From: Calditrichota bacterium
GTDB taxonomy: Bacteria > Electryoneota > AABM5-125-24 > Hatepunaeales > Hatepunaeaceae
NCBI GenBank assembly: GCA_016867835.1
Contig: VGIQ01000001.1
Span: 10,094 to 74,093, forward strand
DNA length: 64,000 bases
Direction: 5' to 3'
Made by a program: the position numbers and the translations under genes. The notes under the pieces are model-generated. The model was not told the DNA's origin. It did no database searches and saw nothing but the letters and a program-made list of their open reading frames with translations. Below, piece after piece: positions 8,125-40,289 of the stretch. Within the stretch, counting starts at the first letter, position 1, and each line of letters opens with the position of its first letter.

Positions 8125-9399
8125 ATGACTGGTATCGTGCCTGACCATAAGCCCGGATCAGGTCCTTATGGTGCGGCTTACATCCCTTATGGCGCCTGGG
8201 GCGGCAGTTGGTTTCCGGCCTGGCACACCAGCGCGTTGGCTGAGATCGATATCGGACGGTTCGCCGCTGAGGCTTTTGCCTTTGTCCTTGGGCAGCGCGG
8301 CATCCGCACTGTCGACCTCGACTACCTGATCAGTGGCTCGACGATTCCCTGGCTTTTCAAGTTCTGGGGTTCGCCCTATCTGTCGCATCTCTTCGGCAAA
8401 CGACTGCCCGGTTTTCACCTCGAGCAGGCCTGTGCGACGGGATTGCAGGTGATCGTCAAGGCGACCGCACAGGTTGCCTCGGGCAGCCACCGCGCGGTCG
8501 GGGTGCTCGCCTTCGACAAGACGAGCAACTCGCCGGCTTCGATCTTCCCAAACCAAGGCAGTTACCGCCGGACGGAAGTCCAAAGCGACGTGTGGGACAA
8601 TTTCGGCTTCGACCCGTCGGCGGGAGCCTCCGGACGGGCGCAAGCCTCCGGCGAGACTTCGATGATTGCTTGCGCCGGGCGAGCCTGCCGTCAGTTTAAA
8701 TTGGACTTCAGCGAGATTGCCGATCTCGCCTGGCATCGTTATCAGCAGTATTTCGACGCCAGGTCCTCGGGCTGGCTGGACCGGATTCTCTTCCCGATGT
8801 CGGTTCTCGACGTGCGTGGGCAGAAGATCGGAACCGTCGATGAAGACACCGGCGTCCGACGCTACGAATCGGCGGATCAGATCCGAGCCGAGCGGCAGAT
8901 CGACGCCGGGGTCAGCGCCGGAACCCAGACCCACGCCTCGGACGGAATGTTCGGGATGGTCGTAACCGACCGGGAGGGTTTGTCGCAATTCAGTTCCCGC
9001 CCTGAGATCGCGATTCAACTGCTTGGCGCAGCCGAATATCGCACCGCGCTTGGAATGATGCCCGAAGCCCCCGCGTTAGCCGCCGCGCAACTCCTGAACC
9101 GGCTCGGCCTGAAGATCGGCGATGTTACGACCTTCTACGACCACAATCCATTCGCTGTTAACGACTTGATCTTCGCGCGGCACTTCGGGATAGATTGGCA
9201 CCCGATGAACGAGACCGGCTGCCCGCTTGTCTATGGCCATCCGCAAGGTCCAACATTGGTGCGGGTCACCGTCGAAGCCCTTGAAAGAACCGTTGAAAAG
9301 GGCGGCGGACTCGCCCTGGTCTTCGGCTGTGCAGCCGGTGATGTCGGGATAGCCGCACTCTTTCGGGTCGATGATCATAAAGCGGGGGGATCAAAGTGA
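8125..9399 (+). CDS. divergent thiolase-family protein
   Basis: Active-site-like EQACATGLQV (thiolase N-terminal Cys region) and C-terminal GHPQGPT ... FGCAAGDVG resemble thiolase His/Cys signature regions. GTGA overlap with the next gene. Confidence 0.55.
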   Translation: MTGIVPDHKPGSGPYGAAYIPYGAWGGSWFPAWHTSALAEIDIGRFAAEAFAFVLGQRGIRTVDLDYLISGSTIPWLFKFWGSPYLSHLFGKRLPGFHLEQACATGLQVIVKATAQVASGSHRAVGVLAFDKTSNSPASIFPNQGSYRRTEVQSDVWDNFGFDPSAGASGRAQASGETSMIACAGRACRQFKLDFSEIADLAWHRYQQYFDARSSGWLDRILFPMSVLDVRGQKIGTVDEDTGVRRYESADQIRAERQIDAGVSAGTQTHASDGMFGMVVTDREGLSQFSSRPEIAIQLLGAAEYRTALGMMPEAPALAAAQLLNRLGLKIGDVTTFYDHNPFAVNDLIFARHFGIDWHPMNETGCPLVYGHPQGPTLVRVTVEALERTVEKGGGLALVFGCAAGDVGIAALFRVDDHKAGGSK

Positions 9400-11450
9400 A
9401 GACGATGCGACAGGCGACAACGGAGACGCTCGGACTGGGTCATCCGCTCGCCTTCTTCAAAAATGGCCGGCTGCCGGTTACCGCGGCTGAACTGGTTGAA
9501 CGAGTCTTTGGCGGCGCCACTGGCCGCGGCGCGCTCGTCATCAGCGGCGGAAACGGGATCGTCGGGTCGGGCAAGGCGATGCAGTTGGGAGCGCGGCTGC
9601 TCGATTACGGTGTGCCGGTAGTGACCCTCGACCTGCCTGATGCTCCACCCGGGCTGAAAGGGCAAATGGACGGCCTCATCCGGTCGTTCGGGCCAGCCGG
9701 GGCTGCTGCCATTGCAGCCAATATCGTCCAAATGACTTACGACGGCAGGCGCCTACCCGCGACCTTGACCCGGTTCAACCCACGATTCGTCCTCGAGGCG
9801 ATTCCCGAAGTGCTCGCCATCAAGCGGGCGCACTATGCGCTCTGGCGCGAGGTCTATCCAGAGATCACCATCCGGTCGGTTACGTCCGGCTTCCCGAGCC
9901 GGGAACTCGGGGTGGGGGTCTTCCATCCCTCGTTTCCGCATCCGATCAACAAGGTCTGGGAGGTGGTAGAGGATTCCCCATCCGATGCGGCACGCTTGCT
10001 CTGGGCGCTCGGGCTGGTGCCGGTGCCGGTGGGGGATTACTGGTCGTTCATTCTCGATGTGCTCTTCTGCGGTGTAACGCTTGCGGCACTCCGGTTTCAG
10101 GAAGCGGCAAATATGCCGGCCTGGAAGGTAGATAAACTGGTACGGCTATTGGTGGGACCGAATCCCCTCCGGGCGCATGATGCCATTGGCGCGGGGGCGT
10201 CGTTCCTCACCTGGTCGTGCCTCTATCATCTGGCCGGGGAGTATGGCGACCTCTTTCAACCGGCGGCGGAACTCGAACGCCGCAAGGCTTCGGGCGAGAC
10301 GTGGTATTCCTCGTTTAGGCCGGTAGTGGACCGGCCGTTCACGGACGGCGATCGCCTCGAAGCCTGGATTCTGGGGCCGTTGCTGCAGATGACGAGCCTC
10401 ATCCTGCGCGAGTCGCGAGCCCACCTGGCACACATCAACGCCATCGGGGAAATGTGTGCACAGTTCACCAGAGGAGTTCCGGTGCTGGCACGGTCGTTAG
10501 GAACGACAAGGGTAATCGAAATAGTAGAGCGATATCACCGTCTCCATCCCGAGGCTGCCACGAGGGCGTGGCATCCCGAGGCTTTTTTGGCGCTTGAAAG
10601 CCCCGAAGGCGCGATGCTCTATGTCAACGCCGGGCACGACGGGACGGTCGGAGTGGTGACGATCAGCCGGGAGGCGCTGAACGGCGATGTCATCGCCGAA
10701 TTGAACCGCGCTTTCGACTGGTTGATCGCAGAGGGTATCGAACGGGTGATCCTGTCCGGCGACTTCCACCTTTCGACGCAGATGATCGGCGCCGATACCG
10801 GCGAATTCTATCCAGCCCTTACGGACGAGCAAGCCGGCTTCAACCTCTCCAGCGAGTGGACCCGCACCGCGCGGCGGCTCTTCGATGGATTCAAGGTCAG
10901 TGTCGGTTTCATCGGCGGCAAGCGATGCCTCGGCGGGATGCTCGAACTGATGGAACATTGCCACTTCGTAGTCGCGGAGCGGGATACTCAGTTGGGACTG
11001 CCCGAAGTGACTCTGCCGGTCGTGCCGGGAATGGACGGGACGCATATTCTCTTTCGCCGCGCAAAAGAAGCCGATTGGAGCCGTGTGGCGCAACTCTTGA
11101 TGACCGGCAAGGCGGTGAAAGCGGCTGATGCCGTCGGATGGCTCTGCGACCGGGTCGGGACGACGGACGAAGCGCTAGCCCAAACGTGGGGGTTGGCTAT
11201 GAATGGATCAGCGCCGGAACGATCCTTGCGCCGGGAGAGCCTCAAACTGTCGGCCGGACTGTTCGAAGCGGTGGAGGCATCAACTGGTGCTGCAGGACGA
11301 CAGGCGATTGCCGAGTCGGCACGGGACTGCGTGGGAATCGATTATGAAACTGCACTCGAACGACAAGCGCGACATTCTGCCGGTTTTATGATCGGTGAGG
11401 CATGTCGGAAAGGGGCGGTGGGATCCGCCGCCAGGCGGGTGCTGGGATAA
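9396..11450 (+). CDS. fused 3-hydroxyacyl-CoA dehydrogenase (N-terminal) / enoyl-CoA hydratase (C-terminal) protein
   Basis: N-terminal Rossmann region (ISGGNGIVGSGKAMQLGARLL). C-terminal crotonase-like region (GVVTISREALNGDV ... GGKRCLGGMLELMEHCHFVVAE). 684 aa. Confidence 0.65.
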   Translation: MKTMRQATTETLGLGHPLAFFKNGRLPVTAAELVERVFGGATGRGALVISGGNGIVGSGKAMQLGARLLDYGVPVVTLDLPDAPPGLKGQMDGLIRSFGPAGAAAIAANIVQMTYDGRRLPATLTRFNPRFVLEAIPEVLAIKRAHYALWREVYPEITIRSVTSGFPSRELGVGVFHPSFPHPINKVWEVVEDSPSDAARLLWALGLVPVPVGDYWSFILDVLFCGVTLAALRFQEAANMPAWKVDKLVRLLVGPNPLRAHDAIGAGASFLTWSCLYHLAGEYGDLFQPAAELERRKASGETWYSSFRPVVDRPFTDGDRLEAWILGPLLQMTSLILRESRAHLAHINAIGEMCAQFTRGVPVLARSLGTTRVIEIVERYHRLHPEAATRAWHPEAFLALESPEGAMLYVNAGHDGTVGVVTISREALNGDVIAELNRAFDWLIAEGIERVILSGDFHLSTQMIGADTGEFYPALTDEQAGFNLSSEWTRTARRLFDGFKVSVGFIGGKRCLGGMLELMEHCHFVVAERDTQLGLPEVTLPVVPGMDGTHILFRRAKEADWSRVAQLLMTGKAVKAADAVGWLCDRVGTTDEALAQTWGLAMNGSAPERSLRRESLKLSAGLFEAVEASTGAAGRQAIAESARDCVGIDYETALERQARHSAGFMIGEACRKGAVGSAARRVLG

Positions 11451-11533: not shown

Positions 11534-12979
11534 TTGGAAATCGGGAGCATCGTGGAGTTTCGCGAACCGATCGACCAGTTGGTGAACAGCCCGCAAAGGT
11601 TCACCTCACAACTCAAGTTCCCTGTGCCGGAGCGAATCAAAATCTACGATTCGACCCTGCGCGACGGCGAACAGATGCCGGGCGTCGCCTTTTCGCCGGG
11701 GCAGAAGTATCAGGTCGCCAAGGCGCTCTCGGAGATCGGCTGCGACATCCTCGACCTCGGTTTCCCCTATGCTGCGCTCTCCGATCGCTATGCACTACAG
11801 ATGATCGTCCAAGCCAAGCGGCTCGGCGAAATCCGCAAGGAGGTCGATCTGCTGGTGATGTGCCGTTCGACCCAGCAGGACATCGACGCGACCATTCAAT
11901 CGCTGCGCGACATCGACGTCGATATCAACGAGGTGACTTTCTTCATTTTCACCTCAGGCTCCGACCTGCACCTGAAGTATAAGATTGGCAAGACGCTCCT
12001 GAAGCGGGATGGGATCGATCCGGCGAAGTGGCTCGATCAGCCGGTCTCCTACTATCGCGATGCCAATATCCGGATGCAGTGCGACGCGATCCGGTATGCT
12101 CGCGAAAGAGGCGTCGAGCGGATTGAATTCGGCGGCGAAGACGGCTCCCGCGCCGACCTCGACTATACCATCGAACTTGCAAAGGCCGGCTACGATGCCG
12201 GCGGGACGCGCTACAGTTTTCCCGATACGGTCGGCTGCTTCACTCCGGAAGGCGTCGATTATTACATTCCGCGCATCGTCGCCGAGTTCCCGAATCGCGA
12301 TCTGGTCTGCCACTTTCATAATGACTTCGGTCTCGCGACGATCAACACCTTGCGCGCGATGTCGCATGGCCTCAACGTCCCGACCTGCACCGCCAACGGA
12401 ATGGGCGAACGGGCTGGAAACGCGCCGCTGCATCAGGTTACGGTTGCGTTGAAACTGCTCTACGGCGTTCACCTGCCACGTTTTCGTTACGAGAAGTTGC
12501 GTGAACTGAGGCAACTGGTCGAGGAGTTTTCGGGAATCCCGGTCTCGGCGCACGAGCCGGTCATAGGTGAGGGGGTCTTTACCCACGAGTCGGGCATTCA
12601 CACCGCGGGACTCTTAATCGACGCCTCGATCTATCAGGTGATTCCACCGGAATTAGTCGGTGCGCGCATCCGGTATGTCTTCGGCAAGCACTCCGGGCTG
12701 GCTGCGGTTAAGGCAGTGCTTGAGAAGCCCGAGTACCGGTCTGGCCTTGAGCGGGACGGAGTCGAAGTGAACGACGACCTGATCGAAGCGGTTACGCTCT
12801 TCGTCAAGGATGCCCGCCAGAAGCGGACCCGGAGCGACCAGTTCACCTCGATCACCGAGGCCTACTACCGCGAATACGACCGACTCGGCATATCGGAATT
12901 GCGGCTGGTGGAACTCGCTTCGACTATCGGGCGGCTGCTGAAAGAAGGCCACTTCAACCATGTGGAGAGGAAGAAGTAG
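11534..12979 (+). CDS. 2-isopropylmalate / citramalate / homocitrate synthase-family (DRE-TIM metallolyase) enzyme
   Basis: IYDSTLRDGEQMPGVAFS is the LeuA/CimA/NifV hallmark. HFHNDFGLATINTL is the metal-binding HxH region. 481 aa. The true start may lie upstream of 11534. Confidence 0.7.
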   Translation: MEIGSIVEFREPIDQLVNSPQRFTSQLKFPVPERIKIYDSTLRDGEQMPGVAFSPGQKYQVAKALSEIGCDILDLGFPYAALSDRYALQMIVQAKRLGEIRKEVDLLVMCRSTQQDIDATIQSLRDIDVDINEVTFFIFTSGSDLHLKYKIGKTLLKRDGIDPAKWLDQPVSYYRDANIRMQCDAIRYARERGVERIEFGGEDGSRADLDYTIELAKAGYDAGGTRYSFPDTVGCFTPEGVDYYIPRIVAEFPNRDLVCHFHNDFGLATINTLRAMSHGLNVPTCTANGMGERAGNAPLHQVTVALKLLYGVHLPRFRYEKLRELRQLVEEFSGIPVSAHEPVIGEGVFTHESGIHTAGLLIDASIYQVIPPELVGARIRYVFGKHSGLAAVKAVLEKPEYRSGLERDGVEVNDDLIEAVTLFVKDARQKRTRSDQFTSITEAYYREYDRLGISELRLVELASTIGRLLKEGHFNHVERKK

Positions 12980-12981
12980 TA

Positions 12982-13050
12982 GGACAGGCATTCCTGCCTG
13001 TCCGGAATTTGGCATGGGGATGGGACGGGACAGACAAGAATGTCTGTCCT
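12982..13050. repeat. composite REP-like element: paired hairpins GGACAGGCATTCCTGCCTGTCC and GGGACAGACAAGAATGTCTGTCC nested in an outer palindrome
   Basis: Perfect 9-bp stems with 4-nt loops. The same family recurs at 32420-32476, 32556-32640 and 40383-40455. Confidence 0.7.
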
Positions 13051-13077
13051 ACTGTACAGATTAGATAGGAGTTCACA

Positions 13078-14232
13078 ATGTCGCTTGACTGGCTGCCTCG
13101 CGAAGGGGGATTGAAGGACCATGACCTCTGGGGGGATGAGTTCTTTGGCGGTGAAGCCCCCACCGTCCGTTATGAACTGAAACCGGTTACAGCCCCTGAC
13201 GGCAACGTTGCCGAAGGCTTGTTCACGGCCTGGATCACGCTCGATAACCCGGCGCAGTTCAATTCCTACACCACGCACATGGTGAAGGGCGTCATCGCCG
13301 GGTTTCACAAAGCCTCGATGGATCGGCGGGTGGTGGCGATCGTCTTTACCGCGGTCGGCGAACGCGCCTTCTGCACCGGCGGGAATACCCGGGAGTATGC
13401 CGAATACTACTCCGGCCGGCCGCAGGAATACGGCCTCTATATGGACCTCTTCAACGCGATGGTCGATGCCATTCTGAACGCCAAGAAGCCGGTCATCTGC
13501 CGGGTCAACGGGATGCGCGTGGCGGGCGGTCAGGAGATCGGAATGGCCTGCGACCTCACCATCGCAGCCGATACGGCCGTCTTCGGCCAGGCCGGTCCGC
13601 GACACGGTTCGGCGCCGGATGGCGGATCGACCGACTTCCTCCCCTGGATGCTGCCACTCGAGCAGGCGATGTGGAGCTGCATCAGTTGCGAACTCTGGAG
13701 CGCTTACAAGATGGCGCGCTACGGCCTGGTGTCGAAGGTTGCGCCGGTGCTGGTTCGCGCGTCGGGATCGGAATCCCAACCTGCGCGCGAAAAGTTCATC
13801 CGCAACCCTTTGGTCATCACCGACCGCTATGTCGAAGAGGGCGAGATCGTCTATGGCGAACCGGTCACCGGCGCTGCTGCAGCGTTGGCTAAAGAGCAGT
13901 TTAAGGCAGCGACCTACGACTTCAGCCGGCTCGACGCCGAGGTCAACAGACTGGTCTGGACCTTCACTAACCTTTTCCCGGGCTGCCTCATCAAGTCGAT
14001 CGACGGCATCCGGCAGAAGAAGAAGTTCTGGTGGGATCAGACCAAACTTGCCAACCGGCACTGGCTGGCGACGAATATGATGGGCGAAGCGTTCCTCGGC
14101 TTCCACGCCTTCAATACCAAGAAACAGACCGGGAAGGACACTATCGATTTCATCAAGTTCCGGCAGTTGCAAGCGGAGGGGCATCCGTTCGACGCGGAAC
14201 TGATGGAAGCCGTGTTGGGAAAGAAAATCTAA
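13078..14232 (+). CDS. crotonase-superfamily enzyme of ring-hydrolase length (candidate 6-oxocyclohex-1-ene-1-carbonyl-CoA hydrolase-like; specific function unproven)
   Basis: Crotonase core (AFCTGGN ... KPVICRVNGMRVAGGQEIGMACDLTIAAD). 384 aa is much longer than canonical 260-aa hydratases and matches the long ring-cleaving members. The 460-aa minus-strand ORF 12865..14247 is its shadow. Confidence 0.55.
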   Translation: MSLDWLPREGGLKDHDLWGDEFFGGEAPTVRYELKPVTAPDGNVAEGLFTAWITLDNPAQFNSYTTHMVKGVIAGFHKASMDRRVVAIVFTAVGERAFCTGGNTREYAEYYSGRPQEYGLYMDLFNAMVDAILNAKKPVICRVNGMRVAGGQEIGMACDLTIAADTAVFGQAGPRHGSAPDGGSTDFLPWMLPLEQAMWSCISCELWSAYKMARYGLVSKVAPVLVRASGSESQPAREKFIRNPLVITDRYVEEGEIVYGEPVTGAAAALAKEQFKAATYDFSRLDAEVNRLVWTFTNLFPGCLIKSIDGIRQKKKFWWDQTKLANRHWLATNMMGEAFLGFHAFNTKKQTGKDTIDFIKFRQLQAEGHPFDAELMEAVLGKKI

Positions 14233-14299
14233 CCACAAAGAACACAAAGATCACAAAGATCATAGGGAATACTTGGTGTTCTTTGTGCTCTTCGTGGTG
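14230..14299. repeat. palindromic gene-junction repeat (AACTAACCACAAAGAACACAAAGA ... TGTTCTTTGTGCTCTTCGTGGTG), copy 1
   Basis: Imperfect 25-bp inverted repeat with an 18-bp loop. It begins within the stop codon of the upstream gene. The same family occurs at 16884, 17825, 18661 and 24202. Confidence 0.7.
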
Positions 14300-14310: not shown

Positions 14311-15057
14311 ATGGGCATTCTGAAAGGGAAAACCGCCATTGTCACCGGCGGGTCGTTAGGGATCGGCGCCTCAGTCGCCCTCAAACTCGCCTCCGACGGC
14401 GCCGATGTGGCGCTCAACTACCGCAAGCATGCGGACGAAGCCGAAGCTGTCGCCGAACAGATCCGCACCATGGGCCGCCGGGCGCTGGTGATCCAGGCCG
14501 ACACATCGTCCTTTGCCGATGCCGAAGCGATGGTCGCTCGCGTCAAGGCGGAATGGGGCCGGGTGGACATCCTCGTCTGTAACGCGGGGATCACCAGAGA
14601 CGCGGTGCTCTGGAAGATGACCGAAGAGCAGTGGGACGCGGTGATCGGGACGAACCTGAAGGGCTATTTCAATTACGTCCGCGCGGCTGCGCCGGTGATG
14701 CGCGAGCAGAAGTACGGGCGGATCGTCTGCGTCACCTCGATCAATGGGCTGCGCGGCAAGTTCGGCCAGTCGAACTACGCGGCCTCCAAAGCCGGCATCC
14801 ACGGGCTGGTGAAGAGCGCCGCCAAGGAATTAGGGCGGTCGGGCGTCACCGTCAACGCCGTCGCGCCGGGGATGATCCTGACCGATATGATGGCTGCGCT
14901 GCCGGAGGAGGTCAAGCAGAAGGCGGTGGACGAGACGGCGGTGGGCAGATTGGGGGAGCCGGACGACATCGCGCATGTGGTCAGTTTCTTCTGCAGTGAC
15001 TTCGCAAAGCATGTGACGGGGGAGATTATCAAGGTGGATGGGGGGCAGTATATCTGA
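14311..15057 (+). CDS. short-chain dehydrogenase/reductase (3-oxoacyl-ACP reductase-like; candidate hydroxyacyl-CoA dehydrogenase)
   Basis: TGGSLGIGASVA (TGxxxGIG), NAG, and Y..K catalytic motif (SNYAASKAG). 248 aa. Confidence 0.85.
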   Translation: MGILKGKTAIVTGGSLGIGASVALKLASDGADVALNYRKHADEAEAVAEQIRTMGRRALVIQADTSSFADAEAMVARVKAEWGRVDILVCNAGITRDAVLWKMTEEQWDAVIGTNLKGYFNYVRAAAPVMREQKYGRIVCVTSINGLRGKFGQSNYAASKAGIHGLVKSAAKELGRSGVTVNAVAPGMILTDMMAALPEEVKQKAVDETAVGRLGEPDDIAHVVSFFCSDFAKHVTGEIIKVDGGQYI

Positions 15058-15069: not shown

Positions 15070-15250
15070 TCGCCCCCCCTTTGATTCCCCCCCGCAGAGC
15101 GGGGGGGAGAGAAGGCAGAAGCGCGCCTGCGACTATTACTCCCCCGCGCAAAGCGGGGGGGAGTGAAGATGGAACGTTGTAGTGTATTCGCAACCGCCTG
15201 ACAAGGGGGCAAGACGCTCTACTCCCCCGCGCAAAGCGGGGGGGAATTAA
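15070..15250. repeat. three GC-rich hairpin repeats (CCCCCGC-N4/5-GCGGGGG), two of them near-identical 27-mers (TACTCCCCCGCGCAAAGCGGGGGGGAG)
   Basis: Hairpins at about 15083-15103, 15138-15162 and 15220-15244. The same hairpin core occurs 4x in tandem inside the CDS at 19552-19712. Confidence 0.7.
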
Positions 15251-15264
15251 AGGGGGGGCTGGAT

Positions 15265-15702
15265 GTGCATTGGAGTGGAATTAGGGATGGAAAATCCCCA
15301 ATGAGAGCAATCCCAAAGCGCTTGCCTAAAACTAAGCCTCATTCCGTCAATTTCGCCCGCAGCCTACGCCGTAAGATGACTGACGCCGAGCGGCGGCTGT
15401 GGGCAAGGCTGCGGTCAGGGCGAATAAGCGCCAAATTCCGGCGTCAGGAGCCTATCGGATCTTACATCGTGGACTTTGCTTGCATAGAAAGAGGATTGGT
15501 CATAGAACTTGACGGCTCGCTGCATTACACCGATGAAGGCAAGAAGAGGGATGAAGTTCGGGACGCCTACCTGCGGTCGTTGGGATTCATGGTGTTGAGG
15601 TTCTCAGATCGGGATGTGATGAACAATATCGAGGGGGTATGTCAGGCGATCCTTGAGCAAGTTCAATGGAAAAACGAAGAAAAGGAAGAGTCAGGAAAAT
15701 GA
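15265..15702 (+). CDS. DUF559 / Vsr-like endonuclease-domain protein
   Basis: MTDAERRLWARLR ... KFRRQEPIGSYIVDFACIERGLVIELDGSLH is the DUF559 signature. Lower GC than neighbours. The start could be M at 15301. Confidence 0.7.
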   Translation: MHWSGIRDGKSPMRAIPKRLPKTKPHSVNFARSLRRKMTDAERRLWARLRSGRISAKFRRQEPIGSYIVDFACIERGLVIELDGSLHYTDEGKKRDEVRDAYLRSLGFMVLRFSDRDVMNNIEGVCQAILEQVQWKNEEKEESGK

Positions 15703-20025: not shown

Positions 20026-20026
20026 A

Positions 20027-32392: not shown

Positions 32393-32419
32393 ATGGGTGC
32401 AGATAATTGTGGTATTCTC

Positions 32420-32476: not shown

Positions 32477-32555
32477 ATGCTACTATTTGATGCCCCGATT
32501 AATAATAGGATTTTCCTCTCACCCAATCCTTATTAATAACTGCAGAAAAGCGTTG

Positions 32556-32640: not shown

Positions 32641-32750
32641 AACAACAATATGCACTCATTAATAAAGAGCGGATTCGGACCACACAGTGCTTTCCATTAG
32701 CCTTGTATTGAGCCAAGTGAGTAGTTTCGCTCGAACAGCCTTAATATCCC

Positions 32751-33926
32751 TTGCATAAAGTCCTCACCGGCAATTCCGCCGTCAGTCATGCCGTTCGGCT
32801 GGCGCGAGCCGAGGTGATCGCCGCCTATCCGATAACGCCGCAAACGTCCATCGTCGAAGAACTCGCCGAGATGTGTGCCGACGGCCGGTGCAGCGCGCGA
32901 TTCATCCACAGCGAATCGGAGCACTCCTCGATGTCGGCTTGCATCGGAGCGTCGGCGGCCGGTGCGCGGGCCTTTACAGCGACCTCGAGCCAGGGGCTTG
33001 CCTATATGCACGAGATGCTCCACTGGGCAGCCGGCGGCCGGCATCCGGTAGTGATGGCAGAAGTGAACCGCAGTCTTGCGCCGCCCTGGACGATCTATAC
33101 CGACCAGCAGGACAGTCTCTCGCAGCGCGACACCGGCTGGCTGCAGTTCTATTGCCGGGACAATCAGGAGGTGCTCGACAGCACTCTGCTCGCGTTCAAG
33201 GTCGCCGAGCGCGTCTCATTGCCGGCGATGGTGGTACTCGATGCGTTCGTCCTGTCGCACACCGTCGAACCGGTCGATATTCCCGATCAATCTCTGGTCG
33301 ATCGGTTCCTGCCCCGGCGGGAGGCGGCTTACCGGATCGATCCCGACCACCCGGCAGCCTTCGGTGGGATGAAGGGTGTTCAAGCCTGGATGGAGACGCG
33401 GGTAGAACTCGAACAGGTGATGGAAGCGACTCCAGATCTCATCGCCGAGGAAGCGGCGCTCTGGAAGTCCCTCACCGGACGATGCCTGAATGCCCTTCAA
33501 GCCTACCGGATGGAGGACGCCGAGGTGGCACTGCTGGCCGCTGGAACAGCCGCCATCACTATGACCCTCGCCGTCGATCACCTGCGGGAGGCAGGCATAA
33601 GGGCTGGAGCCCTCGGACTATGGCTCTTTAGACCCTTTCCCGTCGCCGATCTACGTCGGCGGTGCGAACGTCTCGAGCATCTCGTCGTCTTCGACCGGTC
33701 GTGCTCGTATGGGCATGGCGGCATCTTCGCAGCCGAATGCCGGTCAGCGCTTTATGACCTCCCGCAACGGCCCCGGGTGATCGGTCTGGCCGGTGGACTG
33801 GGCGGCCGGGAGATAGATCCGAAGACGCTTGCAGAGGAAACGGCGCGCAGGGTAGAAAGCAGAGGGCAGAAGTCAGGAAATGCGCTATTGGAGTGGTTCG
33901 GAGTGAGGGGAAGGGGGGGGCAGTGA
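32751..33926 (+). CDS. 2-oxoacid:ferredoxin oxidoreductase alpha subunit (PorA/VorA/KorA-like)
   Basis: AVSHAVRLARAEVIAAYPITPQTSIVEEL is the N-terminal domain signature of OFOR alpha subunits. TTG start, 391 aa. Confidence 0.65.
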   Translation: MHKVLTGNSAVSHAVRLARAEVIAAYPITPQTSIVEELAEMCADGRCSARFIHSESEHSSMSACIGASAAGARAFTATSSQGLAYMHEMLHWAAGGRHPVVMAEVNRSLAPPWTIYTDQQDSLSQRDTGWLQFYCRDNQEVLDSTLLAFKVAERVSLPAMVVLDAFVLSHTVEPVDIPDQSLVDRFLPRREAAYRIDPDHPAAFGGMKGVQAWMETRVELEQVMEATPDLIAEEAALWKSLTGRCLNALQAYRMEDAEVALLAAGTAAITMTLAVDHLREAGIRAGALGLWLFRPFPVADLRRRCERLEHLVVFDRSCSYGHGGIFAAECRSALYDLPQRPRVIGLAGGLGGREIDPKTLAEETARRVESRGQKSGNALLEWFGVRGRGGQ

Positions 33927-33931
33927 AGGTG

Positions 33932-34819
33932 ATGCCACAGTCGGCGGCGGGTTTTGCCAATACGGATGTCCTCTGCAGCGGGCATTTGGCCTGCCCCGGC
34001 TGTGGTGGAATACTCGCACTCCGGATGGCAGTCCGGGTGCTTGCGCCGGACTGCGTCTTTGTGATTCCCGCCTGCTGTATGGCAGTAGTTGACGGGCCCT
34101 GGCCGATTTCGGCGCTCGGCGCGGCGCTCTACCATACCGCCTTTGCGGCAACGGCCTCGACCGCAGCCGGGCTTTTGAACGGCCTGCGCTCCCAGGGACG
34201 GAGTGAGACCGTCGTTGTCGGCTGGGCCGGTGATGGGGGGACGTTTGACATCGGCCTGGCGGCAGTCTCAGCTTCGGCGTCGCGCAACGACGATATGCTC
34301 TATGTCTGCTATGACAACGAAGCCTATATGAACACCGGCATCCAACAATCGTCGGCGACGCCCTACGGCGCCTGGACGACAACGACGCCCGCCGGTTCGC
34401 CCAAGAACCGGCCCAAGAAGGACGCCCTGACTCTGATGTTGGCGCACGACATACCCTACATTGCCTCCGCGAATCCGGCCTATCCCGAAGACTTCGAGCG
34501 GAAGTTCCGGACTGCCAAAGGAATGCACGGCTTTCGGTTTATCCATGTCTTTTCCGCCTGTCCGCCGGGGCATAAGTCGGTCGAAGCCGATTCGATCGTC
34601 ATCAGCCGCCTTGCGACCGAAACCGGCATCTTCCCTCTATACGAGGTAGCAAACGGGCAGGGACGATTGACCCTCGACCCTCCGCGCCGGCCGGTTGGAG
34701 ACTACCTCGCTCTCCAGCGCCGGTTCGCCCATTTCAAAGAGGAAGACATCGTCCGCGCACAGGAGGACGTCGAACGGGGACATCAGCGGCTGCTGAAACT
34801 GCTCGCGCTGCAGGAGTGA
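33932..34819 (+). CDS. 2-oxoacid:ferredoxin oxidoreductase beta subunit (TPP-binding)
   Basis: GHLACPGCGG and the TPP region GDGGTFDIG. Start chosen at ATG 33932 (MPQSAAG) after a GA-rich SD. The ORF frame opens at 33893. Confidence 0.75.
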   Translation: MPQSAAGFANTDVLCSGHLACPGCGGILALRMAVRVLAPDCVFVIPACCMAVVDGPWPISALGAALYHTAFAATASTAAGLLNGLRSQGRSETVVVGWAGDGGTFDIGLAAVSASASRNDDMLYVCYDNEAYMNTGIQQSSATPYGAWTTTTPAGSPKNRPKKDALTLMLAHDIPYIASANPAYPEDFERKFRTAKGMHGFRFIHVFSACPPGHKSVEADSIVISRLATETGIFPLYEVANGQGRLTLDPPRRPVGDYLALQRRFAHFKEEDIVRAQEDVERGHQRLLKLLALQE

Positions 34820-34853: not shown

Positions 34854-35447
34854 ATGACGCAACATCCAGCCTCTATCATGGCCGGTGGGAACTCGTTACG
34901 TATGGGCTTCCCGAAGGCAATGCTCACCAAAGAGCGCGAGCCGGTGCTCCGGCTGATGGCGGAGGCTCTGAAACGGTGCGGCTGGACGTTGTCGTCGGTT
35001 GTGGTCGCCACCGAAGACCTTGCCGAATGGGTGCACTGGACGCTCGACCGGCCTCTGGTCATCGTCAACGACCGGCCCGAGCGCGGCCCGATCAGTTCCT
35101 TACGGCTGGCTCTGAACTCCCTGCCGGCGGGAGCGCCCGGTTTGCTTATCTGGCCGGTCGATCACCCCGTCATCAAGGACGGGACATTGCTGAGCATTCA
35201 GCGCGCCGCCAATGCCGTCAACGCCGTCGTGCCGCTCTTCGCAGGTCGTCGCGGTCATCCGGTCTGGTGGGGACGGCAGACCTTTCGGCATCTGAAGAGC
35301 CGGATTGCCAATGGCGGCGCCCGCAAGGTGCTCTATCTGCCGGCAGTCAACGTCTGCGAGGTCGAGGTTGACGATCCGGGAGTTCTGGTCAACATCGACA
35401 CTTCGGAGGATGCGGAAAGGTATGGTCTTCAAGGGGCGAGCGAGTGA
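34854..35447 (+). CDS. MobA/MocA-like molybdenum cofactor nucleotidyltransferase
   Basis: IMAGGNSLRMGFPKAML matches the LAGGxSxRMG signature. 197 aa. Confidence 0.6.
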   Translation: MTQHPASIMAGGNSLRMGFPKAMLTKEREPVLRLMAEALKRCGWTLSSVVVATEDLAEWVHWTLDRPLVIVNDRPERGPISSLRLALNSLPAGAPGLLIWPVDHPVIKDGTLLSIQRAANAVNAVVPLFAGRRGHPVWWGRQTFRHLKSRIANGGARKVLYLPAVNVCEVEVDDPGVLVNIDTSEDAERYGLQGASE

Positions 35448-36235
35448 GCGAGTATTTGGTAGAAGTAGCGAGACGAATTGAGGCTGGGGAGCGGTTTGCG
35501 TTGGTAACCATCGTCAAAGCGACCGGCTCAACGCCGCGCAAGGAAGGCAGCCGGATGCTCGTCGATCCCGCCGGGGACGTCGTCGGGTCGGTCGGTGGAG
35601 CTGCGGTTGAACGGCTCGCCATCCTGAAGGCTCTCGAAGCCATGGCATCGGGGCAGATATCCCGGCTCGAACTAAGCCTGAATGACCTCGAAGCGGTTGA
35701 GACCGGCATGATCTGCGGTGGGCGGGTCGAATTGCTGATCGAGCCGTTCGGCACCGGTCCGGCTCTGCACCTCTTCGGAGCCGGACACGTCGCTCAGCCG
35801 ACGGCGCGGCTCGCCGTTGACCTCGGCTTATCGGTAACGATCTATGACGAGCGTCCCGAGTGGGCTTCCGCCGGGAGATTTCCCCGCTGCCGAATCGTAA
35901 CCGGCCGGTATGAAGACCTGGCCGATGCGCTAATGTCAGCACCCGATGACTTGATCGCCATAATGACCCATTGCCACGCCGACGACTACCGGGTCCTGAC
36001 GCGAGTGGCGCGAAAGCCCTGCCGATACCTCGGAGTCATAGGCAGCCCCCGGAAATCTCTGGAAATTAAGAAACGGCTTTCCGATGACGGCTTCTCAAAG
36101 GATGAAATTGCCCGCATCGAATGCCCCATTGGGCTCGACATAGGATCGCACACACCGGTCGAGATTGCCATTGCCGTCGCCGGGCGGCTGGTGCAAGTGA
36201 GGGCTTCAGGCTCTCAGCCGGTGGCTCTGGAATGA
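35444..36235 (+). CDS. XdhC/CoxI-family molybdenum hydroxylase accessory protein
   Basis: RFALVTIVKATGSTPRKEGSRMLV N-terminal domain. Rossmann-like LHLFGAGHVAQ. Confidence 0.75.
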   Translation: MSEYLVEVARRIEAGERFALVTIVKATGSTPRKEGSRMLVDPAGDVVGSVGGAAVERLAILKALEAMASGQISRLELSLNDLEAVETGMICGGRVELLIEPFGTGPALHLFGAGHVAQPTARLAVDLGLSVTIYDERPEWASAGRFPRCRIVTGRYEDLADALMSAPDDLIAIMTHCHADDYRVLTRVARKPCRYLGVIGSPRKSLEIKKRLSDDGFSKDEIARIECPIGLDIGSHTPVEIAIAVAGRLVQVRASGSQPVALE

Positions 36236-36441: not shown

Positions 36442-37386
36442 ATGCTGCCCAAGTTTGACATCCATAGACCGGCGACGCTCCCGGAGGCGCTCCGGTATCT
36501 CGCCGACCATCAGGATCGTCGCGTCAAGGTGCTTGCCGGAGGCACTGACCTGCTCGTCGATATGCGCCTGCCGGTCATTCCGAACGGCACCCGGCCGCCG
36601 CTTGGCCGTCCGCCGGAGGGCATCTGGGAAGCGCGTAGTTCCTCTGCCGGGCGCCCTGAGGTCCTTTGCGCGCTCTGGAGGTTGAATGAACTGCGCGGCA
36701 TTCGCATAGGGACGGGAGTTATTCGTATCGGAGCGCTTACGACGATCGCCGAACTCGAGCGTTCGCCAGTCGTCCGGGAGCATCTCCCGGCGCTTGGCGA
36801 TGGCGCACGGCAACTCGGCTCGGCACCGGTGCGCAACCGGGGAACTTACGGCGGCAACCTTTGCAACGGTCGGCCAGCCGCCGATACTGCCATCCCAACT
36901 ATCGCGCATCGGGGCCAGGTTCAGGCTGTCTCGCTACGAGGTGAAAGGAATATCCCGGCGGAAGATTTCATCATCGCGCCAGGAAGGACCGCCCTCGAAC
37001 CAGACGAGATCGTCTCCAACGTCATCTTCGATCTGCCGTCCGACTGCCGGATGCAGAGCCGTGGCGCATATCTCAAACTAGCCCAGCGCAAGAGCCTCGA
37101 GATTGCGGTCGTCGGAGTTGCAGGAGCGGTTTGGGTGGACCGAGTCGGGCAGGTGTCAGATGCTGTCATCGCCCTCGGAGCGGTCGGTCCCCGGCCATTG
37201 GTAGCAAGGCAAGCATCGGAAGCGCTTATCGGGTCGGAGATGGATGAGTCGCAGATGCTGAAAGCCGCAGTGTTGGCGTCGGAAGCCGCGACTCCGATTA
37301 CCGATTACCGGGGCGGAAAGGACTACCGGAGCAAAATGGTCGCCGTGCTGACGCGACGGGTTTTGGAGCAGATCTATGGCGCTTGA
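36442..37386 (+). CDS. molybdenum hydroxylase FAD-binding (medium) subunit (CoxM/XdhB/HcrB-like)
   Basis: FDIHRPATLPEALRYLADHQDRRVKVLAGGTDLLVDMRL is the FAD-binding domain. C-terminal CO-dehydrogenase flavoprotein domain. Confidence 0.8.
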   Translation: MLPKFDIHRPATLPEALRYLADHQDRRVKVLAGGTDLLVDMRLPVIPNGTRPPLGRPPEGIWEARSSSAGRPEVLCALWRLNELRGIRIGTGVIRIGALTTIAELERSPVVREHLPALGDGARQLGSAPVRNRGTYGGNLCNGRPAADTAIPTIAHRGQVQAVSLRGERNIPAEDFIIAPGRTALEPDEIVSNVIFDLPSDCRMQSRGAYLKLAQRKSLEIAVVGVAGAVWVDRVGQVSDAVIALGAVGPRPLVARQASEALIGSEMDESQMLKAAVLASEAATPITDYRGGKDYRSKMVAVLTRRVLEQIYGA

Positions 37387-37894
37387 GTCTCTTCCAGAGT
37401 CGCAGGGCGCCCTAAGAGCGCCAGGCAAAGTCCTGATGAGCCTCCGTGTCAACGGCATTGCCTATGACGTCGCCGTCGAACCGCGCCATATGCTGGTCGA
37501 ACTCCTGCGCGACGACCTCGGCTTGACCGGCACCAAGGTCGGCTGCAACATGGGCGATTGCGGTGCCTGCACGGTGTTGCTCGACGGCCTGCCGGTCTTC
37601 TCGTGCCTGGTGCCGGCGCTTGAGGTTGACGGACGCGATGTGACCACCATCGAAGGTCTGGCCGAAAACGGGCACTTGCACCCGCTGCAAGAGGCTTTCG
37701 TCGAGGTCGGCGCCATCCAGTGCGGCTTCTGCACCCCCGGCATGGTGCTCTCGTCGCTGGCGCTCCTGCGGGAGACGCCCGATCCAACGGACGAAGACAT
37801 ACGAAGAGCCTTGTCCGGCAATCTCTGCCGATGCACGGGGTATCAAAAGATATTCGAGGCGATACGGGAAGCGAGTAAGCGAGCGAGCGTTTAG
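37376..37894 (+). CDS. molybdenum hydroxylase [2Fe-2S] small subunit (CoxS/XdhA/HcrC-like)
   Basis: CNMGDCGACTV and CGFCTPGMV are Cys motifs. Confidence 0.8.
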   Translation: MALESLPESQGALRAPGKVLMSLRVNGIAYDVAVEPRHMLVELLRDDLGLTGTKVGCNMGDCGACTVLLDGLPVFSCLVPALEVDGRDVTTIEGLAENGHLHPLQEAFVEVGAIQCGFCTPGMVLSSLALLRETPDPTDEDIRRALSGNLCRCTGYQKIFEAIREASKRASV

Positions 37895-37898: not shown

Positions 37899-40289
37899 AT
37901 GAGCAAGTATCAGATTCTCAACAGCCGCGCGCCGCGGATCGATGCCCTTGACAAGGTAACCGGACGGGCGCTCTACACGGACGACATCGCCCGCCCGGGT
38001 GCGCTCCACTGCGCCATCCTGCATAGCCCCATTGCGCATGGCCGCATCCTTCGGATCGACACCTCGCGAGCCGAGCGGCTGCCCGGCGTCAAGGCGGTCA
38101 TCACCGGCAAGGATATCGGCAGCATAGTCTATGGCGTTTCTCCAGCCCGTTACGACGAGTCGATACTGGCTCGCGAACAGGTGCGCTATGTGGGTGACGA
38201 GGTGGCCGCCGTTGCCGCGATAGACCTCGACCGGGCTCGCGAAGCCGTCTCATTGATTGAAGTCGATTATGAGGAACTACCCCCGGTTCTGGATGGCCAG
38301 ATCGCAATGGACGACGGTCAGCCGCAATTGCACGACAAGTACCCGCGCAACATCTGCGCCGAGGTGCACTGGAACTTCGGAGATTGCGATGCCGCCGAAC
38401 GTGAGGCAGATTTCATTCGCACCGATCGGATCATTTCGAAAATGCAGGATGCCGCATTCCTCGAGCCGCAAGCGGTTCTGGCTGAAGTCGATGCCTCGGG
38501 GCGGCTCACGATGTGGTCATCGACGCAGGCTCCTCACTATGTCCAGCGGACGCTCGCAATGGCTTTGGGACTGCGTCCGGAGAAAGTCCGGGTGATCAAA
38601 CCGGCGGTTGGCGGCGGTTTCGGGCCAAAAGCCTCCTGCTCTACAGCCGAACTGGTCGTCTGTGCACTCGCGCTAAGAACCGGCAAGCCGGTGCGGATGA
38701 CCTTCGACCGCGAGCAGGTTTTTCTCCACTCCCGCGCCCGGCATCAGTTCTTCCACACGATGACGACCGGCGTCAAGCGCGACGGGACGCTCCTCTTCCT
38801 GCGCCATAAGTGCATTCTCGACGGTGGAGCCTTCGCCAGTTTCGGCATCGCGACGGTCTATTATGCCGGGTCGTTGTTAGGCGGCCCCTACCGGCTGAAG
38901 AATATGACCTACGACGGTTATCGGGTGGTAACGAACAAGCCCGCCTGCGGCGCTCAGCGCGGCCATGGCGCGGTCATCGCGCGGGCGCTCTTTGAGACGC
39001 AACTTGACCGGATCGCGGGAGAACTGCATATCGATCCCCTCGAACTGCGACTTCGCAATGTCATGGGGCGAGGCGAAACGACCTGCAACGAACTCTACAT
39101 GTCGAGCCTGGGGATGCGGGAGTGTCTTGAGGCAGTAAGGGATGTTGCCGGATGGGACTCGCAGCAAAACTTGGAGGGTGGGATTCTTCCCGCCCGCGAT
39201 GACAGCCGAGTTCGTCGCGGGCGCGGCGTCGCGTGCGGCTTCTTCGTATCGGGAGCCGGCTACCCGATTTACCGGTCGGAGACCTTCCACGCGACGGTCG
39301 TTACCCGCGTCAGCGAGACTGGCGGTCAGGTAATCGTCGAGTCTGGCGCCGCCGACATCGGGCAGGGTTCGGATACGATGCTGGCGATGATCACCGCCGA
39401 AGTGCTCGCCGTGCCCCTCGCCGATGTCAAAGTGGTCAGCGGCGACAGCGACCTCTCGGTCGATTTGGGGGCATACTCAAGCCGGACGACGCTGATGGCC
39501 GGAGCCGCCGCCCGGGAAGCCGCCGAAGCATGCCGGGACCAGATACTAACCGAAGTTGCCCGCCGCTGCGGCGTCGAGGCGGCTCATCTGCGCATCGAGC
39601 AAGGCTATGTCAAGTCGTCGAACGGGTCGCTCGACTTTGCAGCCATCCGCAAGGAGTTCGCCGCCGAGCATTTCAACTTCGGGGACATCCCCGATACGCC
39701 CGACCTCACCTTCCGCGAAGCTGCACGGATCGCCTACCTTGGGCGGGGGACGATCGTCGGAACGGGCAAATACAAACCGCCGAAATTGGGAGGTTCGTTC
39801 AAAGGCGCTACGGTCGGGACTTCACCAGCCTTCGGTTGCTCGGCGCAGATCGCCGAGGTCGCGGTCGATATGGAGACCGGCGAAGTGACTGTTGAGCGGG
39901 TGGTTGGAGCTCACGACTGCGGCTTTGCGATCAACCGTACGCAAGTCGAAGGGCAGATGCAGGGGTCGGTTTCGATGGGGATGGGCGAGGCTCTTTTCGA
40001 GCAGATACACTACGACCGACGGGGCAACATCCTGAATGCCAACCTCGCCGAATACAAGATTCCGACGGCGATGGACATTCCCAGGATCGAAGCCGTCGTC
40101 ATCGAGACCGACGAACCGAACGGCCCGTTCGGCGCCAAGGAGGTCGGCGAAGGCGCCATTATGCCGACGATCCCGGCTATTCTCAATGCTATCTACGACG
40201 CCGCCGGCGTCCGGATCGAAGAACTGCCCGCGACGCCGGAACGGATAGTCACCGGGTTGAAGGCAGAGGACTTAGGCGGTTGTAAGTAG
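37899..40289 (+). CDS. molybdopterin-binding large subunit of a xanthine-dehydrogenase-family hydroxylase (candidate 4-hydroxybenzoyl-CoA reductase-like alpha subunit)
   Basis: 796 aa. Ald_Xan_dh-type regions (VAAVAAIDLDRAREA, GGGFGPK, GQGSDTM, AVDMETGEV). Confidence 0.75.
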   Translation: MSKYQILNSRAPRIDALDKVTGRALYTDDIARPGALHCAILHSPIAHGRILRIDTSRAERLPGVKAVITGKDIGSIVYGVSPARYDESILAREQVRYVGDEVAAVAAIDLDRAREAVSLIEVDYEELPPVLDGQIAMDDGQPQLHDKYPRNICAEVHWNFGDCDAAEREADFIRTDRIISKMQDAAFLEPQAVLAEVDASGRLTMWSSTQAPHYVQRTLAMALGLRPEKVRVIKPAVGGGFGPKASCSTAELVVCALALRTGKPVRMTFDREQVFLHSRARHQFFHTMTTGVKRDGTLLFLRHKCILDGGAFASFGIATVYYAGSLLGGPYRLKNMTYDGYRVVTNKPACGAQRGHGAVIARALFETQLDRIAGELHIDPLELRLRNVMGRGETTCNELYMSSLGMRECLEAVRDVAGWDSQQNLEGGILPARDDSRVRRGRGVACGFFVSGAGYPIYRSETFHATVVTRVSETGGQVIVESGAADIGQGSDTMLAMITAEVLAVPLADVKVVSGDSDLSVDLGAYSSRTTLMAGAAAREAAEACRDQILTEVARRCGVEAAHLRIEQGYVKSSNGSLDFAAIRKEFAAEHFNFGDIPDTPDLTFREAARIAYLGRGTIVGTGKYKPPKLGGSFKGATVGTSPAFGCSAQIAEVAVDMETGEVTVERVVGAHDCGFAINRTQVEGQMQGSVSMGMGEALFEQIHYDRRGNILNANLAEYKIPTAMDIPRIEAVVIETDEPNGPFGAKEVGEGAIMPTIPAILNAIYDAAGVRIEELPATPERIVTGLKAEDLGGCK

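Follow-up and report, generated by a model that had tools for sequence, protein, structure and literature searches.

The 64-kb stretch of contig VGIQ01000001.1 analysed here (the window) comes from a metagenome-assembled genome (MAG) of an uncultivated Calditrichota bacterium. Sequence comparison suggests, with a probability that we put at roughly 85%, that it carries the central anaerobic benzoyl-CoA pathway of this organism, with a benzoyl-CoA reductase of class I and of the Aromatoleum (bzd) type at its centre. A previous sequence-only reading of positions 8125-40289 had proposed dearomatising reduction and modified beta-oxidation in an uncultivated lineage. The origin of the DNA bears out the lineage, and the reductase proteins BzdN, BzdO and BzdQ, together with the ring hydrolase Oah, all score above equivalog cut-offs, in agreement with dearomatising reduction and ring hydrolysis. 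Every co-directional gene named in that reading was recovered in the gene calls, all on the plus strand. Its 32-kb plus-strand supercluster is real as a block, but it is not a clean operon, the pathway genes being interleaved with unrelated or selfish genes, and its conserved part begins upstream of 8125, with a MarR gene at 6734 and leuB/C/D-like genes from 3508.

Genes were called from the open reading frame (ORF) listing of the window together with Pfam and NCBIfam scans, the latter judged by the curated NCBIfam cut-offs. Scores are in bits, and features lie on the plus strand unless stated otherwise. For comparison, a one-genome-per-species scan returned 340 matching stretches encoding a relative; 80 loci (given L numbers below) were kept and searched by tblastn with 27 window proteins.

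The benzoyl-CoA reductase

The HgdA/B-like pair and the two different ATPases, in which the subunit make-up of class I benzoyl-CoA reductases had been recognised, are two HGD-D and two BcrAD_BadFG proteins by Pfam. BzdN, the [8Fe-9S] subunit of 428 aa (18739-20025), reached 497.1 bits with TIGR03190 (cut-off 453.8); BzdO, the catalytic [4Fe-4S]-OH2 subunit (22912-24204), 737.7 with TIGR03191 (448.6); and the BzdQ ATPase (25569-26459), 435.6 with TIGR03192 (380.2). No BzdP-specific model matched the other, BzdP-like ATPase (24287-25084), which scored 161 bits with BcrAD_BadFG, 202.6 with the generic activase model TIGR00241 (cut-off 125.4) and 126 with the BzdQ model. Its best PDB match was MbdQ (159 bits; BzdQ itself gave 213 bits with MbdQ 9gai_D), and related loci keep it between bzdO and bzdQ. 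These features are consistent with a predicted BzdP, half of the electron-activating dimer.

Comparison with solved structures gave the same picture. BzdO scored 697 bits with 8S02_A, 103 with HadB and 60 with MbdO, while BzdN scored 482 with 8S02_B, over residues 1-268 and 326-428, 133.5 with HadC and 86 with MbdN. In the printed alignments to the Aromatoleum sp. CIB structure 8S02, identity was 67% for BzdO and 56% for BzdN. The models of other subunits gave low values: 137.5 for HadB (cut-off 750), 160.2 for HadC (cut-off 700), 68 for Thauera BcrB and 118 for BcrC. A check for grouping with amino-acid-fermentation dehydratases thus found none, the Bzd scores being 4-7 times those of the 2-hydroxyisocaproyl-CoA dehydratase. 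The Bzd-type equivalog and structure scores therefore point to a dearomatising class I reductase and not to a dehydratase of amino-acid fermentation.

The functional residues lead to a similar conclusion. In BzdN the [8Fe-9S] ligands are Cys36, 73, 100, 263, 293 and 327, with Arg53, 267 and 290 and His330 around the cluster, and the aqua-[4Fe-4S] site of BzdO comprises Cys95, 128 and 380, Glu65, His131 and Trp46 (Fuchs et al. 2025, PMC11971306). All BzdN site residues are kept in the window protein (C32, C69, C96, C258, C342 and C376; R49, R262 and R339; H379), as are all those of BzdO (C91, C124 and C376; E61; H127; W42).

An NCBI protein 100% identical to this BzdO carries the title 'MAG: benzoyl-CoA reductase, bzd-type, subunit O [Calditrichaeota bacterium]'. 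This very protein had been annotated before, and the system is not a new mechanism; what goes beyond routine annotation is only the load of selfish elements and the conserved uncharacterised partners described below.

Ring opening and beta-oxidation genes

The 384-aa crotonase (13078-14232), whose length had suggested a ring hydrolase, is Oah: it scored 560.7 bits with TIGR03200 (cut-off 464.45), its next best model reaching 110, and MenB models, checked for a possible grouping, gave just 90-94 bits. It is followed by a FabG-like short-chain dehydrogenase/reductase (SDR; 14311-15057, Pfam and NCBIfam), a candidate 3-hydroxyacyl-CoA (3-hydroxypimeloyl-CoA) dehydrogenase by sequence, and by an acetyl-CoA C-acyltransferase (thiolase; 15666-16886; Thiolase_N 261, Thiolase_C 155, TIGR01930 432 against 240) that likely starts near 15699. 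The Oah-SDR-thiolase order is kept in many loci, and L002 has a 4-bp overlap of SDR and thiolase. A Dch-like 255-aa crotonase (17900-18667; best NCBIfam model TIGR03189) is kept directly upstream of bzdN, and a Had-like zinc-dependent alcohol dehydrogenase (Zn-ADH; 30614-31648; best NCBIfam model TIGR03201) lies downstream of the reductase genes.

Further upstream, a divergent thiolase-like protein of 424 aa (8125-9399; Thiolase_C 50, Thiolase_N 32 bits) precedes a 684-aa protein (9396-11450) described earlier as a dehydrogenase/hydratase fusion. The gene of the larger protein (~690 aa in relatives) is always accompanied by the thiolase-like gene, the pair occurring in Calditrichota, Gemmatimonadota and LCP-89; the thiolase-like gene also adjoins bzd genes in Zixibacteria/Ignavibacteria-type loci. 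In the 684-aa protein ECH_1 occupies residues 416-587, and the N-terminal half had no match by sequence in Pfam or the PDB. An AlphaFold (AF2) model built on 20 homologues (pLDDT 84) and compared by Foldseek matched trifunctional-enzyme alpha subunits and the 3-hydroxyacyl-CoA dehydrogenases PaaH (3mog) and Hbd (6acq), in support of the fusion; because the model matches those enzymes, the N-terminal half is assigned a 3-hydroxyacyl-CoA dehydrogenase fold. The motif G51-x2-G54-x2-G57 and residues H177, E189, E517 and E537 are invariant in the 20 homologues, at the expected nucleotide-binding and catalytic positions. Membership of FadB/FadJ was rejected, as the domain order is reversed and the FadB/FadJ models gave ~40 bits against cut-offs of ~870-970. 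By its model, the fusion would work like a trifunctional alpha subunit though it is not a FadB/FadJ member.

Electron supply and the molybdenum enzyme

The ferredoxin gene of the sequence-only reading is present. It encodes a BzdM-like protein of 93 aa (26907-27188; weak Fer4 match) with 8 Cys in two cluster motifs, CX2CX4CX3CP and CX2CX10CX3C, and comes after bzdQ in most related loci. The large NuoG-like plus GltD-like oxidoreductase was also confirmed by its Pfam and NCBIfam domains: this 824-aa protein (27258-29732) joins a NuoG N-terminal part (2Fe-2S, 4Fe-4S) to a GltD-like flavoprotein, and its gene is kept 3' of the ferredoxin gene across phyla. BzdV of Aromatoleum is a putative NADPH:ferredoxin oxidoreductase (PMC5658619), and by analogy the 824-aa protein is a candidate BzdV-like NAD(P)H:ferredoxin oxidoreductase. 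The proposed 2-oxoacid:ferredoxin oxidoreductase (OFOR; 32751-34819) was found with alpha (391 aa) and beta (308 aa) subunits, but it is Por/Vor-like and not Kor-like, and no homologue of a gamma subunit is found in the window. In several loci OFOR-alpha comes after Had.

The last genes of the block encode a MocA/MobA-like nucleotidyltransferase with an XdhC maturation factor (34854-36235) and an enzyme of the molybdenum cofactor (Moco) type. The latter comprises an FAD subunit (36442-37386) of the xanthine-oxidase family, ordinary type, a 2Fe-2S subunit of the same family (37376-37894) and an HcrA-like large (Moco) subunit (37899-40289). It had been assigned to the 4-hydroxybenzoyl-CoA reductase/xanthine dehydrogenase family. 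The large subunit agrees with this, its best PDB match being 1RM6_A (527 bits against 320 for the next), but it stays below the HcrA equivalog cut-off, and all three Hcr models were missed. Homologous Moco trios stand beside bzdN in six Zixibacteria/Ignavibacteria-type loci (L021, L029, L031, L033, L037 and L040), an arrangement that speaks for a functional tie with the pathway.

Conservation of the gene cluster

A core of bzdN-O-P-Q, ferredoxin and the 824-aa gene occurs in most of the 80 loci, in MAGs of Calditrichota, Zixibacteria, Ignavibacteria, LCP-89, Planctomycetota, Gemmatimonadota, Acidobacteriota and Anaerolineae. Its recurrent neighbours are Oah, the SDR, the thiolase, the Dch-like and Had-like genes, the fusion-thiolase pair and the Moco trio. 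In the Calditrichota-type order, the genes run (leuB-leuC-marR-leuD)-thiolase-like-fusion-IPMS-like-Oah-SDR-thiolase-DUF2889-Dch-BzdN-BzdO-BzdP-BzdQ-ferredoxin-824-aa-GNAT-Had-(acyl-CoA dehydrogenase)-OFOR, where IPMS stands for isopropylmalate synthase. The same core was met in relatives from 340 species-level genomes, nearly all of them uncultivated, and supports a broad role of class I reductases in the turnover of aromatic carbon under anoxic conditions.

Two proteins recur in this order as uncharacterised partners. The DUF2889 protein (17372-17827; Pfam) is persistent between the thiolase and Dch in Calditrichota-type bzd clusters, and adjoins bzdN-linked thiolase genes in the Planctomycetota loci L067, L077 and L079. 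The 163-aa GNAT acetyltransferase (29781-30272; Pfam) keeps its place, with the 824-aa gene on one side and the Zn-ADH on the other, throughout the Calditrichota-type clade and, judging from its family, may be a regulatory acylating enzyme. The gene list obtained here should make for cleaner annotation, including that of conserved uncharacterised partners such as DUF2889, GNAT, the reversed fusion with its thiolase, and the Moco enzyme.

A variant arrangement was seen in L006/L044, on the complete Zixibacteria chromosome CP070796.1. There two large peptidase genes, oriented oppositely, come before bzdO-P-Q, the ferredoxin gene and an 845-aa gene; a full-length bzdN was not seen upstream, and a short C-terminal BzdN-like match stands just before bzdO.

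Insertions in and next to bzdN

BzdN is 428 aa long in the window and 373-376 aa in all 70 relatives measured. The extra ~54-57 residues (269-325), with PPLSGxEVREDKS repeats, are encoded by an in-frame tandem array of a 39-bp unit (3.6 copies; 19549-19712) and start ~10 residues past the ligand Cys258 (Cys263 in 8S02 numbering). The 39-bp unit contains a palindrome like those of repetitive extragenic palindromic (REP) elements, TCCCCCCCGC-NNN-GCGGGGGGGA. A related palindromic repeat has expanded inside bzdN, beside the double-cubane cluster, with the reading frame intact.

The bzdN|bzdO junction (20026-22911) holds genes for a MazE-like (20138-20407), a ParE-like (20407-20673) and an HNH_5 protein (20738-21742) and for an unknown 383-aa protein (21739-22890). 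This cargo block (20138-22890) is low in GC: the GC fraction is ~0.60 throughout the window region and dips to 0.475 at 20-22 kb. Eight distinct loci of close relatives, with BzdO 78-89% identical, have junctions of 1.1-7.3 kb (L002, 6710-7844; L004, 6884-10000; L012, L014 and L017-L020); the gap elsewhere measures 19-85 bp in most loci and 115-490 bp in ~10. In L002 and L004, where the junction genes were listed, the contents differ from the window and from each other, and the 302-aa insert protein of L002 has no homologue in the window. The junction looks like an integration hotspot inside the operon, and would be a documented case of one within a catabolic operon; the locus also offers a natural test of insertion tolerance in BzdN and in the bzdN-bzdO pair. 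A defence system in the insert was considered and rejected, PADLOC giving no match for the MazE/ParE/HNH/383-aa block; the same search found none for the DUF559, 23S rRNA intervening-sequence protein (IVP) and DUF3800 genes or the 302-aa insert of L002. Around the cargo, a left-hand array of GAATGTA is clear and no convincing right arm was found.

Repeats, hairpins and other intruders

The block and its flanks, over ~36 kb, contain at least eight intrusions of unrelated or selfish kind: the DUF559 gene, the MazE/ParE/HNH/unknown block, two 23S rRNA IVP genes, a GxxExxY-like pseudogene, a cyclase-domain fragment, the REP array in bzdN, and DUF3800. The DUF559 endonuclease-like gene (15265-15702) separates SDR and thiolase, and the spacer before it (15072-15259) holds three more copies of the palindrome found in bzdN. 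With cargo between bzdN and bzdO and an IVP pseudogene between bzdP and bzdQ, bzdNOPQ is not contiguous, which is a matter of layout and not of the enzyme.

Many spacers carry tandem repeats of 7-9 nt right after the stop codon, several of them paired with an inverted array as long hairpins. Their units include CACAAAGAN, GTAAGCGG, GGCTTAG/CTTAAGC, CAAGTAT and GAATGTA, and they occur at 7299-7337, 14234-14298, 16886-17365, 17827-17855, 18667-18724, 24204-24261, 25088-25136/25527-25545, 26439-26465/26860-26903, 27187-27259, 29738-29769 and 30479-30587. For the unit CACAAAGA, 1.2 copies were expected and 15 counted; all but one of the 15 are in spacers between 14234 and 24231. One hairpin (16886-17365) has arms of CACAAAGA repeats and, as its loop, a frameshifted GxxExxY-like pseudogene, a label assigned by visual reading of the translation; a Pfam scan of one ORF there (16927-17091) gave no match. 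Between arms of GTAAGCGG repeats lies a frameshifted gene of the 23S rRNA IVP (four-helix-bundle) family (25145-25521), and an intact IVP gene (26395-26793) lies within the inverted repeat formed by GGCTTAG/CTTAAGC arms; this gene probably starts only after the bzdQ stop codon.

L002, a relative at 89%, has that intact IVP gene with its repeat arms, and analogous arrays of other repeat units at the same spacers, while the insert-free L007 has none. Of the other fetched loci only L001, whose genes agree one by one with those of the window, had arrays of CACAAAGA. SRR16108672 gives a contig that agrees gene for gene with the part from the 3' end of bzdN through bzdO. We accordingly rejected CACAAAGA as a conserved regulatory site: only the window and L001 have it, and close relatives use other units at these spacers.

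A tentative idea, to which we give less than even odds, is that the bzd-operon spacers in one Calditrichota clade have been colonised by hairpins like 23S rRNA intervening sequences, serving as landing pads for cargo and perhaps also as RNase-III-type processing sites. Landing pads, if real, would explain why close relatives have different inserts at bzdN|bzdO, and processing would divide the operon transcript into segments each with a stability of its own. DUF559 is preceded by REP palindromes and has no repeat arms, and the MazE/ParE/HNH block has a left-hand array, for which no matching right arm was found.

A second palindromic family (~GGGCGGACAGGAATGTCCGCCC) was noticed at gene ends and in spacers (7888-7902, 12978-13053, 32400-32650 and 40382-40456), with 7 matches against 2.0 expected, a count reached in 1 of 100 shuffles. 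Between Had and the OFOR stands a cyclase-domain fragment (31665-32165) followed by REP-rich non-coding DNA to 32750; the fragment, a stand-alone 166-aa protein with an adenylate/guanylate cyclase catalytic domain, gave a weak PycC-like match in PADLOC. L002 has an acyl-CoA dehydrogenase gene at this position, and tblastn with its protein found no remnant in the window.

Points against and alternative readings

Several observations weigh against the benzoyl-CoA pathway as read here. The Dch-like protein gave 163.7 bits with TIGR03189 (cut-off 292.5), barely above generic hydratases (150 bits), and the Had-like protein 257 with TIGR03201 (cut-off 338.65), yet the latter model is its best match and its gene is a conserved neighbour; because both fall below the equivalog cut-offs, the roles of Dch and Had rest on conserved position. 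The OFOR scored 415 bits with PorA_Arch and 346 with VorB-beta, and 85 and 48 with the Kor models, and a tblastn search of the window with a POR-gamma protein yielded nothing significant (best E 0.5). The Hcr equivalogs were missed at 829.7 (alpha; cut-off 994.55), 87 (beta; 404.55) and 186.9 (gamma; 257.8). The best PDB matches of the FAD subunit are the medium subunits of nicotinate and CO dehydrogenases, and it gave no match to 1RM6_B at E<=1e-10. In 4-hydroxybenzoyl-CoA reductase, an extra [4Fe-4S] cluster, which sets this enzyme apart, sits in the beta (FAD) subunit. An additional cluster of this kind was reportedly described by Unciuleac et al. in 2004, going by the title of their paper. 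The FAD subunit here, with three widely spaced Cys, has too few to hold such a cluster. On sequence the Moco enzyme is HcrA-like but lies outside the Hcr family. No gene for an aryl-CoA ligase, a glutaryl-CoA dehydrogenase or an electron-transfer flavoprotein was found in the 64 kb. Finally, the two subunits of one heterodimer, BzdN and BzdO, are encoded by genes that 2886 bp and four foreign genes keep apart, and the repeat insertion could, from its position, impair BzdN.

Some of these points would also fit a cluster that is partly a juxtaposition, in which the Moco enzyme, the OFOR and the IPMS-like gene have their roles in metabolism unrelated to it, namely purine or aldehyde oxidation, pyruvate or branched-chain 2-oxoacid metabolism, and leucine synthesis. 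The upstream leuB, leuC and leuD do look like true leucine genes, the OFOR matches PorA/VorB best, the FAD and 2Fe-2S subunits best fit XdhB and glyceraldehyde-dehydrogenase models, and in L007 the Moco operon flanks the cluster at its opposite end, on the opposite strand. We consider this unlikely, while granting it a sizeable chance: Moco trios adjoin bzdN in the six loci named above and come after Had in another two, several loci have OFOR-alpha after Had, and the best solved relative of the large subunit is 4-hydroxybenzoyl-CoA reductase, by 527 bits to 320. The chance is small that the four-subunit enzyme mainly reduces another aryl-CoA (methyl-, halo- or hydroxybenzoyl-CoA or another aromatic thioester). 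Substrate range is not readable from sequence, the neighbouring Moco enzyme has no assigned specificity and the window has no benzoate-CoA ligase, but the subunits are far nearer to BZD than to 3-methylbenzoyl-CoA reductase (697 against 60 bits for BzdO, 482 against 86 for BzdN), the structure with bound benzoyl-CoA has the same catalytic Glu, His and Trp and the same cluster ligands, and Oah is, by its hidden Markov model, specific to the product of the unsubstituted pathway.

That the invasion by selfish genes and repeats left a decaying cluster, non-functional or partly functional in this strain, is in our view very unlikely. Eight intrusions in ~36 kb, the uncoupling of bzdN from bzdO, a REP array adjoining a cluster ligand and the missing acyl-CoA dehydrogenase of the 89% relative's Had|OFOR position could all be taken for decay, but the pathway ORFs are all intact and full length, the bzdN insertion is in frame, every catalytic and ligand residue is kept, and the pseudogenes found are intruders (IVP, GxxExxY-like) and not pathway genes. 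Close relatives also carry bzdN|bzdO inserts, and the split is therefore old and tolerated. A 2-hydroxyacyl-CoA dehydratase with its activator, acting in amino-acid fermentation, would share the Pfam families HGD-D and BcrAD_BadFG, and one database homologue (P0085) is named phenyllactyl-CoA dehydratase. This reading was already refuted by the HadB (137.5) and HadC (160) scores against cut-offs of 750 and 700, and is made extremely improbable by two different ATPase genes, the six-Cys [8Fe-9S] ligand set of BzdN and the adjoining Oah, Dch-like and Had-like genes.

Proposed pathway

For the benzoyl-CoA pathway that we favour, gene identities come from this analysis and the flow from the characterised Aromatoleum/Thauera pathway. 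The substrate would be an aryl-CoA made elsewhere, as the window has no CoA ligase, and the xanthine-oxidase-family enzyme may first trim a substituent from it. The BzdP/BzdQ dimer would take an electron from the 93-aa 2x[4Fe-4S] ferredoxin, and ATP hydrolysis would drive it into BzdN ([8Fe-9S]) and then BzdO ([4Fe-4S]-OH2), where the ring would be reduced to cyclohexa-1,5-diene-1-carbonyl-CoA. The diene would be hydrated by the 255-aa crotonase, the alcohol oxidised by the Zn-ADH and the ring opened by Oah to give 3-hydroxypimeloyl-CoA, which the SDR, the fusion and the two thiolases could carry through beta-oxidation towards glutaryl-CoA and acetyl-CoA. Electrons for the re-reduction of ferredoxin may come from the 824-aa NuoG/GltD-type oxidoreductase, the OFOR or both, and MarR is the likely local regulator.

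Upstream and neighbouring genes

Upstream of the block lie leuB-like (3508-4551; NF002898, 411 against 393), leuC-like (5463-6737; LeuC family, 595 against 385) and leuD-like (7355-7852; LEUD_arch, 196 against 109) genes, a MarR regulator gene (6734-7285; Pfam) and, on the minus strand among them, the DUF3800 intruder (4652-5323). The MarR gene is wedged between leuC and leuD, and the IPMS-like gene is set apart from the leu genes by the thiolase/fusion pair. The latter gene (11534-12979) encodes an IPMS/homocitrate/citramalate-synthase-like protein with HMGL-like and HCS_D2 domains (Pfam; best NCBIfam score 322, cut-off 517) and is found directly upstream of oah in L007, L024, L047, L053, L058 and L083. 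In L007, with BzdO 74% identical, the order leuB-leuC-marR-leuD-thiolase-like-689-aa-HMGL-Oah is the same. Because they pass or nearly pass leucine-pathway models, we read the upstream leu genes as putative leucine genes sharing inherited synteny. An oxidative branch of the tricarboxylic acid cycle, in which the IPMS-like gene, the leuB/C/D-like genes and the OFOR would encode Re-citrate synthase, aconitase, isocitrate dehydrogenase and a 2-oxoglutarate:ferredoxin oxidoreductase fed by them, found no support: LeuB passes the 3-isopropylmalate dehydrogenase equivalog (411 against 393), and the archaeal-type isopropylmalate isomerase fit of LeuC/LeuD and the Por/Vor-like OFOR oppose it as well.

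Elsewhere in the window, a 369-aa protein (60713-61822) combines a LIM domain (66 bits) with a DA1-like/peptidase segment. To our knowledge this combination is typical of eukaryotes and unusual for a bacterial genome.

Comparison with known systems

Calditrichota are an abundant sediment phylum, known mainly for the degradation of proteins and polysaccharides. A literature search combining Calditrichota with benzoyl-CoA reductase found no paper describing the pathway in the phylum, which, on the present reading, would join the lineages with an ATP-dependent ring-reducing pathway. As superfamily relatives, the 2-hydroxyacyl-CoA dehydratases (HadBC/HadI, HgdAB/HgdC) belong with the reductase to the benzoyl-CoA reductase/dehydratase radical enzymes and have common Pfam domains; the window differs from them in its two distinct ATPases, the six-Cys double-cubane site of BzdN and the ring-hydrolysis neighbours. 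For the Moco enzyme, HcrABC (1RM6) contains in HcrA the best solved relative of the large subunit, whereas the FAD subunit here is without the extra cluster.

The bcr system of Thauera aromatica (BcrCBAD, ferredoxin, KorAB, Dch, Had, Oah) resembles the cluster in its ATP-dependent reductase, ferredoxin, OFOR as source of reductant and Dch/Had/Oah; the Thauera-type subunit models, however, remained far below their cut-offs, and the OFOR here is Por/Vor-like where that of Thauera is Kor. Closer is the bzd cluster of Aromatoleum (Azoarcus) sp. CIB (bzdNOPQMSTUVWXYZA), which has the same four-subunit BZD-type class I reductase, a ferredoxin gene immediately 3' of bzdQ, a candidate NAD(P)H:ferredoxin oxidoreductase and Dch/Had/Oah-type enzymes. 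The differences are that the host here is an uncultivated Calditrichota bacterium and not a denitrifying betaproteobacterium; that no benzoate-CoA ligase is found in the window; that the regulator is of the MarR type, whereas BzdR is described for CIB; that a cargo of 2.9 kb splits bzdN from bzdO and BzdN has a repeat insertion; and that the neighbours include the fusion-thiolase pair, DUF2889, GNAT, the OFOR and the Moco enzyme. Among uncultured organisms, a bzd-type benzoate pathway was described from single-cell genomes of deep-sea Chloroflexi in 2017 (PMC5736913), and class I benzoyl-CoA reductases from Zixibacteria and Acidobacteriota MAGs of mangrove sediment in 2025 (PMC11704145). These systems are alike in having Azoarcus-type bzdNOPQ with bzdM, bzdV, korAB and dch-had-oah in uncultured sediment anaerobes, and differ in belonging to other phyla than Calditrichota.

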